A stretch of DNA of 64,000 bases from a virus (taxonomy: Duplodnaviria > Caudoviricetes): IMG/VR virus record IMGVR_UViG_3300006922_000005; one strand, given 5' to 3'. Shown one piece after another: positions 10,766 to 39,704 of this stretch. The number at the start of each line of letters is the position of its first letter. The first letter of the stretch is position 1. Under the pieces are notes generated by a model. The model was given only the letters and a program-made list of their open reading frames with translations, was not told the DNA's origin and ran no database searches. The translations under genes were made by a program, and so were the position numbers.

Positions 10766-10862
10766 AAAACTCCAAATAAAGTATTGTTTAAATTATATAT
10801 AGTCTTTTTAAAAAAAGCAAGAGGTTTTATGAGTGAAATTGCTCAATTGTAAGGATTTGTTA

Positions 10863-11102
10863 CTATTTGTCGAAGTAAAACTTAGAACCCCATGAAGATT
10901 TAATCTTGTTGAGGATTGATGCATTACAACCAATAACCTTCTGTGTTGAATTACTATCAATAACAGTATTGTATTTGATCCAAGTCCAGAACTGAACAAA
11001 GTCTGCGTCAGTTGTTTCAGGCTTTGCTACTACTTTATATCTGTTGATTACAGGTATTTCAATAGTAAGTTTGCCTTTGTTGGTTTGTAATTGTGCTTTC
11101 AT
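10863..11102 (-). CDS. Hypothetical protein
   Basis: ORF abuts its neighbours with typical codon usage. Confidence 0.5.
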   Translation of the reverse strand: MKAQLQTNKGKLTIEIPVINRYKVVAKPETTDADFVQFWTWIKYNTVIDSNSTQKVIGCNASILNKIKSSWGSKFYFDK

Positions 11103-11498
11103 TTATGTTGCTTTGCCTTCGCTAGACACAGGACCAAAGTTTGCACCTGGCATCACAATACATGCAAAATCTGGAGCAGGCATTATAACAATCGAAACTG
11201 AAAAGGTTTTTGGGTTTGCCCAAATAACCATTGGTCCTCTAAGAAACTGCCCATTTGGTAAACCCCATGTAACTAATGCTTGTGCTGTCGGTATTTCACC
11301 GTGTTTTCTCAGTAGTGCTTCAACAATCTCAGCAGGTCCGCAATCAACCAAAATAGGTAACTTCATTACCTGTGCATTAGGTTGTTGTTGAGGAGTTGGT
11401 GTTTCCTGTGTTTCCTGAGCAGTTAATTGGGTGAACATTGCACCGGAAAGCAATATTGCTCCGATGGTTAATCCTAAAGTTTTTAATAAGTGTTTCAT
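11103..11498 (-). CDS. Exported hypothetical protein
   Basis: Signal peptide; two Cys; TAAATA late promoter 5 nt upstream. Confidence 0.6.
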   Translation of the reverse strand: MKHLLKTLGLTIGAILLSGAMFTQLTAQETQETPTPQQQPNAQVMKLPILVDCGPAEIVEALLRKHGEIPTAQALVTWGLPNGQFLRGPMVIWANPKTFSVSIVIMPAPDFACIVMPGANFGPVSSEGKAT

Positions 11499-11510
11499 AA
11501 TGTTATTTAG

Positions 11511-11600
11511 TGGCGGAAGGACTGGGATTCGAACCCAGGGAAGAGTTACCCCTTCGTCGGTTTAGTAAACCGGTGCTTTAAGCCGCTCAGCCATCCTTCC
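11511..11600 (-). tRNA. tRNA-Ser(ACT), rare A34 anticodon
   Basis: GGAAGGA/TCCTTCC acceptor stem, G73, encoded CCA, long variable arm, anticodon arm CCGGT-TTACTAA-ACCGA. Confidence 0.9.
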
Positions 11601-11606
11601 ACAAGT

Positions 11607-11699
11607 CTAACTTATGGTGATCATCCACGGCTCTCCGTAGATTAAAACATGTATACTATTAACAACGAGTGCAACTCCTAACATTTCTAAGTATCCCAT
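11607..11699 (-). CDS. 30-aa hydrophobic peptide not in the ORF track
   Basis: MGYLEMLGVALVVNSIHVLIYGEPWMITIS; TAATG coupling to the upstream ORF. Confidence 0.45.
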   Translation of the reverse strand: MGYLEMLGVALVVNSIHVLIYGEPWMITIS

Positions 11700-11935
11700 T
11701 ACCTTTTTTCTTTCCTTATATTAACTTCTTGCTTGTGTACTACAAACTTTTCTATTTGAGACGGTTGTTTCACTAACCATCCGCCTTCATTAACAACAAA
11801 GACATCCCCAGGTTTGTATAACCAGTGGTCTTTAGGCTTACCTTCTTTACTAAACCCCATTACTTCTCCGGGCCAGTCTCCTGCAATTCTAAAGTTTTTA
11901 CCAAATTGTTCTACAGTGTAATCAAGCCACATCAT
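11699..11935 (-). CDS. Hypothetical protein
   Basis: ORF with overlapping start/stop coupling. Confidence 0.55.
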   Translation of the reverse strand: MMWLDYTVEQFGKNFRIAGDWPGEVMGFSKEGKPKDHWLYKPGDVFVVNEGGWLVKQPSQIEKFVVHKQEVNIRKEKR

Positions 11936-14768: not shown

Positions 14769-15335
14769 CTATAATATTTCGTCTGCTATTCCCATGTCAA
14801 CCATTTGTTTAGCAGTGTAGTATTGGTCCGAAGGATTTTTAATAAACTTTGTACGAACCTCTTGCATTGACATGCCTGTTGCTTCTTTCAATATATTTAA
14901 GCATCTAATTTCACAGTTTTGATTTTCTTTCATCTGTGCTCTCATGTCATGCATTTTGGAATTCATTTCATCACTGTGTTGATGATTCATGCTACCTGCA
15001 TTTTTACCAATATATCGTTCACCTTCTTTACCACTTGCAAAAATTAAAAAACCTGCACTCATAACAGCACCAATACCAACAGTAGATATATTATGGTAAC
15101 TGTATTTCATTACATCAATAAGTGCAAAGGCTTCGTATAAATCTCCACCATATGTATTAATGTATAGTTCTAAAGTGCGTTTGGGTTTTTTCTGTAAGTT
15201 TGCCGATAATATCCATTTAATACAATCGCCAACATTATCTGTAGTAATTTCTCCGTGTAGATAATATACGTCATTATCCAGAAGACTTTTGTCAATTGTT
15301 TCACTAAATGTTAAATTATCATATTTAGAAGGCAT
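14769..15335 (-). CDS. Second, divergent ClpP-family protease
   Basis: LYINTYGGD, AVMSAG (Ser), MNHQH (His), DQYYTAKQMVDMGIADEI. Confidence 0.85.
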   Translation of the reverse strand: MPSKYDNLTFSETIDKSLLDNDVYYLHGEITTDNVGDCIKWILSANLQKKPKRTLELYINTYGGDLYEAFALIDVMKYSYHNISTVGIGAVMSAGFLIFASGKEGERYIGKNAGSMNHQHSDEMNSKMHDMRAQMKENQNCEIRCLNILKEATGMSMQEVRTKFIKNPSDQYYTAKQMVDMGIADEIL

Positions 15336-15508: not shown

Positions 15509-15585
15509 TGGCCTGCCCGGCAGGATTCGAACCTGCAACCTACTGCTTAGAAGGCAGTTGATCTATCCAGTTGATCTACGGGCAG
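15509..15585 (-). tRNA. tRNA-Arg(TCT)
   Basis: ACTGC-CTTCTAA-GCAGT anticodon arm, CCA end. Confidence 0.95.
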
Positions 15586-26263: not shown

Positions 26264-26340
26264 TGGCCTGCTCGGGAGGACTCGAACCTCCGACCTTTGG
26301 TTCCGCAAACCAATGTTCTATCCGGCTGAACTACGAGCAG
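26264..26340 (-). tRNA. tRNA-Arg(GCG)
   Basis: TTGGT-TTGCGGA-ACCAA anticodon arm, CCA end. Confidence 0.92.
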
Positions 26341-38200: not shown

Positions 38201-38467
38201 TTAGTAGTTGTTTTTATTGTCTAACAATGCACGTTGTTGCCTACGTACTGCCTGTTTTTTAGCCTTGCGTTTCTTATCGCTAGGTTTTTCATAGTACTGC
38301 TTGTCTCGAAAGTCATTAATAATTCCGCTTTCAGCAACTTTGCGTTTAAACTTACGCATGGCTTTCATAAACTCTCGTTCACCTTCGCCACGTACTACTA
38401 CACTCAGGCCCGCTTCGTTGGGGTCTCTAACTTGTGCCATTGATCTTACCTTAATGTTTTTTGCCAT
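38201..38467 (-). CDS. rpsU: Ribosomal protein bS21
   Basis: AMRKFKRKV...I..D.R.KQYYEKPSDKKRKAKKQA. Confidence 0.85.
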   Translation of the reverse strand: MAKNIKVRSMAQVRDPNEAGLSVVVRGEGEREFMKAMRKFKRKVAESGIINDFRDKQYYEKPSDKKRKAKKQAVRRQQRALLDNKNNY

Positions 38468-39704
38468 TTGTCCTTTTGTTTCTATATACCAGTAACGGTG
38501 TATCGTTATTAGTTATCGTTTCTTCTTGTATCGTTATAGTGTCCAACCCTTCTGCCGCTAAATCTTCAGCGTCATATTGATACTGTAACAGTGCCTCTTC
38601 TATAATCTTTTTAAGTCCACGAGCACCTGTCTTAAGTTCTTGTGCTTTAGAAGCAATCGCTTTAATTGCTCCTTCAGTGAACTCTAAGTTTATATTGTCT
38701 AGTCCAAACAAATAACTATATTGTTTTACTAAACTGTTCTTAGGCTCTTTAATAATACTACATAGTTGCTCTTGTGTCAACTGATTTACGTATGTAATTA
38801 AGCCAAAACGACCAATAAACTCTGGAATGAAACCGTACTTGATTAAGTCTTCTGGAAGTATTTGTGACAAATCTGCTTCTGCGTTTGGATCTTGTATGTC
38901 TGCACCAAACCCCATTCCGTTTTGATTTGTACGTTCTGATAGTAGTTTATCCAATCCAACAAATGCACCACCAACTACAAATAATATATCTTTTGTATCA
39001 ATGTCTACCATTTCAGCACCTGGATGCTTACGTTTGTTTTGTCCTGCATTAACTCTAACTTTAGTGCCTTCAATAATCTTTAAAAGACCTTGTTGTACAC
39101 CTTCTCCACTAACATCTCTTGTAACTGAAACGTTTTGTGATTTCTTTGTAATTTTATCAATTTCGTCTACAAACACAATACCACGTTGTGCTAGTTCAAT
39201 GTTTCCATCTGCTTCTGTTACTAGTCTAGTAATAATACTTTCTACATCATCACCAACGTATCCTGCTTCTGTAAGTGTTGTAGCATCACAAATAGCAAAC
39301 GGTACATTAAGGAAGTCTGCAATAGTTTGTGCAATTAATGTTTTACCTGATCCTGTTGGACCCATAACCATTACGTTAGTTTTATCTAATTTAATATCGT
39401 CACTTGGATTGTTTAATTTTTTGTAGTGTTGTGCTACTGCAACACTCATTGCTAACTTTGTTTGTTCCTGTCCAATTACATGTTGATCAAGATACTCTTT
39501 AATCATCTTTGGATTAAGTTTAGTTGTATCAAATGCTTCTTTCTTAGTATGAATACTTTTAACTTTTTCTTTAGTTAAAATAGTTACACATAAGTCAATA
39601 CATTCATTACAAATTGCACTGTCGTCACCGACAATCAATTTGGTTACTTCTTTTTTATCTTTGCCACAAAAGTGACAGTGGTGATCTTGTTGTTTATTGC
39701 TCAT
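38451..39704 (-). CDS. clpX: ATP-dependent Clp protease ATPase subunit
   Basis: C4 zinc domain, GPTGSGKT, EAGYVGDDVE, DEIDKI, RDVSGEGVQQ, RKHP, IPEFIGR, GARGL. Confidence 0.96.
   Translation of the reverse strand: MSNKQQDHHCHFCGKDKKEVTKLIVGDDSAICNECIDLCVTILTKEKVKSIHTKKEAFDTTKLNPKMIKEYLDQHVIGQEQTKLAMSVAVAQHYKKLNNPSDDIKLDKTNVMVMGPTGSGKTLIAQTIADFLNVPFAICDATTLTEAGYVGDDVESIITRLVTEADGNIELAQRGIVFVDEIDKITKKSQNVSVTRDVSGEGVQQGLLKIIEGTKVRVNAGQNKRKHPGAEMVDIDTKDILFVVGGAFVGLDKLLSERTNQNGMGFGADIQDPNAEADLSQILPEDLIKYGFIPEFIGRFGLITYVNQLTQEQLCSIIKEPKNSLVKQYSYLFGLDNINLEFTEGAIKAIASKAQELKTGARGLKKIIEEALLQYQYDAEDLAAEGLDTITIQEETITNNDTPLLVYRNKRTNGKKH

Follow-up and report, generated by a model that had tools for sequence, protein, structure and literature searches.

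One of eight RNA genes in the window, the 64,000-nucleotide stretch of DNA analysed here (Caudoviricetes; IMG/VR record IMGVR_UViG_3300006922_000005), was called by ARAGORN as a tRNA-Ser with the anticodon ACT, in the place where such a gene had been predicted from the letters alone. The other seven are tRNAs for Leu(UAA), Arg(UCU), Glu(UUC), Cys, Trp and Arg(GCG) and a permuted alpha-type tmRNA. The window, phage DNA with a GC content of about 36%, has nearly all of its genes on the minus strand (Table 1). The original prediction had also named a phage-encoded Arg(UCU) as a competitor at AGA codons, and this tRNA was found in the window.

The original prediction described a complete serine-type cloverleaf with a long variable arm, G73, an encoded CCA, a UU-ACU-AA anticodon loop and a C27-A43 mismatch, and ARAGORN, Rfam and direct reading of the sequence upheld every one of these elements. 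The gene scored 52.4 bits against the Rfam RF00005 model (threshold, 29 bits), with one pair of the anticodon stem marked as non-standard. The acceptor stem contains seven base pairs, all of them Watson-Crick, beginning with G1-C72, G2-C71 and A3-U70; the D stem contains three, including C11-G24; and the T arm is of the standard form, CUGGG/CCCAG. Serine identity resides in the variable arm, G73 and the acceptor and D stems, and the anticodon is ignored by seryl-tRNA synthetase (SerRS), while the class II tRNAs of leucine and tyrosine carry A73. All elements of the SerRS identity set (G73, G1-C72, G2-C71 and C11-G24) are present in tRNA-Ser(ACU). Across 25 distinct ACT tRNAs of the family, G2-C71 is invariant, G1-C72 is found in 23 (with one G-U pair and one gap) and C11-G24 in 24. 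Since the identity elements are all present and are the same as in cellular serine tRNA, charging with serine is expected, and the tRNA is predicted to be a substrate of the host SerRS. A37 follows U36 in the loop, and t6A37 is usually formed in such a context. A scan for promoters and terminators around the gene returned nothing beyond shuffled expectation.

Table 1. Features of the window discussed in the text, in order of position
Feature	Position	Strand	Basis or remark
tRNA-Ser(ACU) gene, class II, G73, encoded CCA	11511-11600	-	ARAGORN, Rfam RF00005 and reading of the sequence
Long variable region, 18 nt (6-bp stem, 4-nt loop), serine-type class II mark	11539-11556	-	Reading of the sequence
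Anticodon arm, CCGGU-UUACUAA-ACCGA	11557-11573	-	C27 (11573) · A43 (11557) mismatch, the Rfam non-standard pair
Anticodon ACU	11564-11566	-	A34 = plus-strand T 11566; C35 = G 11565; U36 = A 11564
ClpP protease gene	14769-15335	-	
tRNA-Arg(UCU), cognate AGA reader	15509-15585	-	ARAGORN; Rfam, 68.5 bits
Adenylate/guanylate cyclase-like protein, 683 aa	17087-19138	-	Annotation in Melnitz and HTVC008M
tRNA-Arg(GCG)	26264-26340	-	Rfam, 66.4 bits
AAA+ ATPase with 'ATP-dependent protease' PHROG match	38451-39704	-	
Permuted two-piece alpha-type tmRNA, tag ANDNYAPEMALAA	48927-49296	-	

The best marker of kinship in the window is the cyclase-like protein, which shares 73% identity with its counterpart in Methylophilales phage Melnitz and 48% with the one in Pelagibacter phage HTVC008M. 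Melnitz phages have been reported to carry four tRNAs, none of them for serine, and share just tRNA-Leu with the window. CheckV estimated that five related IMG/VR records (G404 to G408; loci L029, L027, L053, L021 and L004) are 17 to 66% complete at 61 to 230 kb, which suggests genomes near 350 kb. The window phage may thus be a jumbo relative of Melnitz (141 kb) and HTVC008M (147 kb), outside their size class.

The letters of the gene were recovered independently of the window. A separate DNA run (X9) yielded a 1,823-nt contig over positions 10800 to 11754 with five differences, none of them in the anticodon, and at least 14 DNA runs from marine metagenomes, under 12 study codes, contained the stretch around the gene. 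The identical gene was found in four IMG/VR contigs (L008, L029, L031 and L037). The exact 17-nt anticodon arm occurred in 55 IMG/VR contigs, in 53 of which ARAGORN called a tRNA-Ser(ACT), and this recurrence of the exact arm together with a tRNA call far exceeds chance. When any base was allowed at position 34 of the same arm, viral contigs carried A in 55 cases, G in 54, C in 5 and T in 2. A search with the 15-nt core of the arm extended the family to at least 130 tRNA-Ser(ACT) genes in IMG/VR, that is, 130 of the 137 loci among those listed, with 76 distinct sequences. The proposal to look for the same anticodon in related phages was therefore rewarded, and the concern that ACT might be an assembly error for GCT was not borne out, ACT being read in the independent DNA run and in more than 100 other contigs.

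Pairing within the family was examined in two sets: the 25 distinct sequences from the initial scan, which served for the covariation analysis, and the wider set of 76, which served for the tally of pair 27:43. Among the 25 distinct ACT tRNAs, the acceptor, D and T stems are paired in 93.6% of cells, and two-sided changes were seen in ten pairs (104 cells), with strong covariation of the acceptor and T stems. Sliding the 3' partners as a control reduced pairing to 29 to 53%, and the observed covariation score was reached by none of 500 shuffles. Pair 27:43 also covaries across the 76 distinct ACT sequences among the matches listed, in which it was read as G:C in 29, C·A in 25, C:G in 8, G·U in 7, A:U in 5, U:A in 1 and A·A in 1. 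The retention of C27·A43 in 25 distinct sequences marks it as inherited within a single large subfamily rather than as damage, and the same C27·A43 is found in a cellular Ser(UGA) tRNA (L191). These observations bear on the possibility that the gene is a decaying, non-functional copy or an artefact of sequencing or assembly, to which the anticodon-stem mismatch and an anticodon that reviews class as 'prohibited' might otherwise have pointed. Against it stand the identical gene in four other contigs, the compensatory changes among the 76 distinct members listed, the confirmation of the letters by an independent run and the inheritance of the mismatch itself, and its probability is close to negligible. 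The gene is a real, conserved phage tRNA-Ser(ACU).

The family was then sought in cellular and cultivated-phage collections. Among 185,579 bacterial species representatives, the 17-nt arm was matched in 46 genomes and in no case within a tRNA, a search that covers this stem only. The bacterial matches examined (L121 to L166; Bacillaceae, Anaerolineae and others) form the core of a palindromic, operator-like site (AAACCGGTTTAC / TAAACCGATTT) that is identical to the arm by chance; the site is often found a short way ahead of a gene start and forms tandem repeats in some of these loci. Among 50,697 GenBank phage records, no close relative of the window tRNA-Ser(ACU) or of the ACT tRNA of the L007 type was found, and the four tRNAs retrieved from the best matches were serine tRNAs with TGA, GCT or CGA anticodons. 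The record nearest to the window (G001, 48 kb) does not carry the tRNA-Ser(ACU). Thus, the Ser(ACU) family is large and, within the collections searched, is confined to uncultivated phages.

The company that the gene keeps varies within the family. Ser(ACT) is the sole serine tRNA in five related viral records of 61 to 230 kb, and Arg(UCU) accompanies it in 26 of 54 ACT loci. Ser(GCT) and Ser(ACT) were observed together, about 4 kb apart, in L035 (3262-3350 and 7478-7562) and L055 (8243-8331 and 12459-12543), so that in some phages the A34 form supplements the G34 form and does not replace it. Other A34 tRNAs were also called in viral contigs (L015, L048, L073 and loci of the GCT type), namely Leu(AAG) twice, Ser(AGA) twice, Asn(ATT) three times and Thr(AGT) once; Asn(ATT) would be a further A34 tRNA of a split box. 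A weak Pro(AGG) call of 32.6 bits was obtained at G408:C1:219187-219256.

The standard reader of AGY codons, tRNA-Ser(GCU) (the E. coli serV type, or gene L206 of genome G033), shares with the phage tRNA its amino acid, its codon box and its UU-NCU-AA loop context. The two differ in that the phage tRNA has A34 in place of G34, by which AGU would be read through a Watson-Crick pair and AGC probably poorly, and in that its body belongs to a type other than GCU, with a D arm and a variable-arm length like those of the UGA type. When tRNA-Ser(ACU) was searched against 401 alphaproteobacterial genomes, the best matches, at 89% identity over 90 nt, were to two AT-rich genomes of 1.3 to 1.5 Mb (G342 and G033; loci L171 and L172), and the genes matched were tRNA-Ser(UGA), not Ser(GCU). 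The 401 genomes included the unpublished genome G043, on which none of the statements made here depends. Genome G033 carries three serine tRNAs, GGA, UGA and GCU, and the window tRNA is identical to its Ser(UGA) at 80 of 90 positions, to its Ser(GCU) at 69 of 93 and to its Ser(GGA) at 64 of 91. The window tRNA and the Ser(UGA) of G342 and G033 do not differ in the acceptor stem, T arm, discriminator or CCA and hardly differ in the D arm; in the variable region they differ at 3 of 18 nt. Half of the differences (5 of 10) fall inside the 17-nt anticodon arm, where the cellular loop CUUGAAA stands against UUACUAA in the phage and G43 against A43; the gene accordingly looks remoulded or recombinant, and the altered loop directs the tRNA to another codon box, AGY in place of UCN.

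Phylogenetic placement was consistent with these identities. In a tree built without the 7-nt loop, the window type was sister to the Ser(UGA) of G342 (support, 91/97), within an enclosing clade of 34 rows of which 28 are Ser(UGA), nearly all cellular (97/89). When the loop was retained and the tree restricted to ACT and GCT rows, 24 of the 25 ACT sequences grouped together (95/99). The phage ACT lineage represented by L021 has an anticodon arm and a variable arm identical to those of the window tRNA, whereas the acceptor stem, D-loop and T stem differ. Two histories were considered and rejected. An origin as a simple G34A mutant of Ser(GCU) does not agree with a body of the Ser(UGA) type, as judged by the loop-masked tree and by 80 of 90 against 69 of 93 identical positions; and a single origin of ACT is at variance with the loop-masked tree, whose supported branches force at least three changes of label and which needs seven as drawn.

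Collectively, these data are best explained if the body in this lineage derives from an alphaproteobacterial tRNA-Ser(UGA) whose loop was replaced by, or remoulded to, UU-ACU-AA. The mosaic would fit either the capture of a host Ser(UGA) followed by loop replacement or gene conversion among serine tRNA genes with a CCGGU/ACCG stem in common, a choice that 90 bases are too few to settle. Serine tRNAs, whose anticodon plays no part in recognition by SerRS, would lend themselves to such moves between codon boxes. We tentatively propose, as a possibility that falls somewhat short of the probable, that the phages maintain an old and large family of a split-box A34 tRNA that cells avoid, and that in this lineage a captured host Ser(UGA) was converted to an AGU reader. 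The conversion could have proceeded by an anticodon-loop swap or by gene conversion among serine tRNAs with the shared stem. Phages could afford the small risk of misreading that such a tRNA may bring, having an Arg(UCU) of their own and needing accurate translation for one infection only.

Codon usage was compared between the 87 open reading frames (ORFs) of the window and 100 kb of G033, a candidate host type chosen by the likeness of its tRNA body. AGT accounts for 43% of serine codons in the phage (476 of 1,101) and for 18% in G033, a 2.4-fold excess, while the share of AGC is similar in the two (9%, or 101 codons, and 8%). AGT is the commonest serine codon of the window, with an AGT:AGC ratio of 4.7:1, and the bias is uniform, AGT making up 28 to 71% of serine codons in all genes with products of at least 250 aa. 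Each of the phage tRNAs matches a top codon. CGT makes up 30% of arginine codons in the phage and 13% in G033, an excess that fits the phage Arg(GCG); the corresponding shares are 46% and 57% for AGA among arginine codons, 42% and 46% for TTA among leucine codons and 84% and 73% for GAA among glutamate codons. Thus, the anticodon of tRNA-Ser(ACU) matches a codon that is commoner in the phage than in the candidate host type, as would be the case for a tRNA that supplements codon supply. As a second line to the host, the phage tmRNA was compared with G033, G342 and G392 and had no real match in any of them; these genomes therefore cannot be named as the host, G033 and G342 being only those with the most similar tRNA body.

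The same relation was seen across viral loci that share the anticodon stem. Median GC content was 0.376 for ACT loci and 0.470 for GCT loci, and the corresponding AGT/AGY ratios were 0.67 and 0.48 (Mann-Whitney p = 0.002, for loci that are not independent samples). The link between ACT and AT-richness is not absolute, one ACT contig having a GC content of 62%.

Differences in composition of this kind also bear on the second alternative of the original prediction, evasion of host anticodon nucleases, in which the selected trait would be resistance and not codon supply. According to this proposal, the replacement of G34 by A34 spares the phage reader of AGY codons after the host tRNA-Ser(GCU) has been destroyed by an anticodon nuclease, the reading of AGU being the same. 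We know of no nuclease that targets tRNA-Ser(GCU) at G34. In its favour, U32, U33, C35, U36, A37 and A38 are the same as in the GCU form with the same stem (54 viral contigs), and the difference is thereby confined to one position. Phage tRNAs whose anticodon-loop changes resist host tRNases are documented (PMC10264068). However, escape from a nuclease predicts neither the link with AT- and AGT-rich genomes nor the 2.4-fold excess of AGT over the candidate host, both of which are explained by codon supply. Further, a tRNA with A34, because it reads AGC poorly, would compensate only weakly for the loss of the GCU tRNA. Nuclease escape is therefore considered unlikely.

The state of A34 was sought in RNA libraries. 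Metatranscriptome run X17 contained two short contigs, of 41 and 47 nt and at a depth of 24 to 28, that lie on the body of the tRNA alone and leave its flanks uncovered. One of them (record 12; 11539-11579) spans the anticodon with no differences and reads A at position 34, with the qualification that assembled contigs hide minority variants and that carry-over of DNA is possible. No change at 11566 was among the differences listed for any run. RNA runs X15 and X16 also gave contigs over the tRNA, which derive from relatives (90 to 95% alike) or, at very high depth, from the conserved T-arm end, and these were rejected as evidence for expression of the window gene. The X17 contigs provide a modest hint that the gene is expressed as a small stable RNA with an unedited A34.

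Conversion of A34 to inosine, by the host TadA or by an enzyme of the phage, would give a tRNA that reads AGU and AGC and, in addition, AGA. Such a tRNA would have the merit of covering both AGY codons alone, and some A34 tRNAs other than ACG, namely Phe(AAA) and His(AUG), are partially edited in E. coli. It would equally place serine at arginine sites, AGA being the codon for 46% of phage arginines. The anticodon loop is not that of a TadA substrate, U33-A34-C35-G36, since position 36 is U and not G. None of the 87 ORFs within the 64-kb window contains a cytidine/adenosine-deaminase zinc motif, and Pfam searches of ten neighbouring ORFs returned ClpP and a weak GNAT match only, with no tRNA-modifying enzyme among them. 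The A read in the X17 contig may point in the same direction. Consistent with this, cDNA opposite A34 of an ACU tRNA in E. coli contained T only, so that the ACU anticodon was not deaminated there, in a setting where the tRNA body or the host TadA differs from the phage case (PMC11066159). An inosine at position 34 is thus distinctly unlikely.

The decoding behaviour of an ACU anticodon has been measured with the same orthogonal tRNA in E. coli, for which values of 9.4% at AGU and 0.36% at AGG were reported, AGC and AGA being below detection (PMC11066159). These values are relevant to a reading in which an unmodified A34 superwobbles and puts serine at AGA and AGG codons to a useful or harmless level, whether as deliberate or as tolerated recoding. 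The small signal at AGG would agree with it, as would the finding that in certain four-fold boxes (Mycoplasma Thr and E. coli Gly) an unmodified A34 can read several bases. However, reading of AGA stayed below detection in that system, the phage has its own competitor in Arg(UCU), and AGA is the main arginine codon of the phage, so that sizeable misreading would harm every protein. Recoding of arginine codons is accordingly regarded as highly improbable.

Taken together, the gene is likely to be a working phage tRNA that is charged by the host, retains an unmodified A34 and serves as a dedicated decoder of AGU. The host synthetase would attach serine, and the unmodified A34 would pair in Watson-Crick fashion with the U of AGU, with AGC read weakly at most. 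In this way the tRNA would add AGU decoding capacity in a host that is expected to read AGU only through the G·U wobble of a single tRNA-Ser(GCU). The phage Arg(UCU) would cover AGA, out-compete misreading by Ser(ACU) and so limit the misincorporation of serine in the split AGN box. The sequence data show the gene and its fold, its conservation and covariation, the codon usage, the kinship of the body and an A at position 34 in RNA-library contigs; we infer that the tRNA is charged, that decoding is specific, that inosine is absent in vivo and that the tRNA confers a benefit in fitness. The original prediction had proposed that A34 is left unmodified and tuned to AGU, the genome being AT-rich, and had called for counts of AGT, AGC and AGA; those counts, with the AT-rich ACT loci, the A34 of the RNA contig and the E. 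coli ACU data (PMC11066159), lend that proposal support.

The premise of the original prediction that bacterial A34 tRNAs are essentially limited to Arg(ACG) was nearly right, Leu(AAG) and Thr(AGU) being known exceptions. These exceptions, tRNA-Thr(AGU) of Mycoplasma and Leu(AAG) and Thr(AGU) of lactic acid bacteria, resemble the phage gene in that A34 has replaced G34 in AT-rich genomes with many U-ending codons. They differ in that they serve four-fold boxes, where misreading is harmless, whereas the phage Ser(ACU) serves a split box that is shared with arginine. In a review of tRNA gene content, A34 in the Ser-Arg box was described as universally missing, and phage tRNAs were reported to lack the same 'prohibited' genes as bacteria (PMC8007984). 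Natural ANN tRNAs of split boxes have since been noted as sporadic among the bacteria of GtRNAdb and always beside the GNN form, in a study in which phages are unmentioned (bioRxiv 10.64898/2026.05.15.725136). The same study found that E. coli grew better in several media with an engineered Ser-tRNA(ACU), a tRNA that proved harmless or helpful, and described the near-absence of unmodified ANN tRNAs as paradoxical. The engineered ACU tRNAs of E. coli thus have the anticodon of the phage gene and are functional and AGU-specific, the serine form being beneficial when overexpressed; they are laboratory constructs, whereas the phage Ser(ACU) is a natural and conserved gene family. No description of a phage Ser(ACU) was found in the literature searched. 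What the gene described here adds is a body of the UGA type, the contrast in AGT usage between phage and candidate host, the covariation of pair 27:43 and the reading of A34 in an RNA library.

A natural, structurally constrained family of phage Ser(ACU) tRNAs provides real material for the paradox of the unmodified ANN tRNAs, in that it shows the anticodon to be selectable in nature, and it ties the ACU anticodon to AGU-rich, AT-rich genomes. The sequences can be used to ask if A34 remains free of modification and by what means the misreading of AGA is prevented, and the body of the UGA type offers a natural example of a tRNA that changes its codon box. For annotation, the family advises caution: an ACT anticodon in such a gene should not be 'corrected' to GCT, nor should such calls be dropped.

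Two further features of the window were observed. Arg(GCG) is missing from most bacteria, Thermotogae and Spirochaetes having it in place of ACG (PMC8007984), so that the phage inverts the bacterial pattern twice, with G34 for A34 in the arginine CGN box and A34 for G34 in serine AGY; Arg(GCG) occurs together with Ser(ACT) in the relatives L020, L027, L038, G404 and G405 as well. Separately, the tmRNA, the ClpP protease and the AAA+ ATPase look like a phage-borne kit for trans-translation and proteolysis, and the tmRNA tags of relatives read ANDNYSPEMALAA and ANNNYAPEMALAA.
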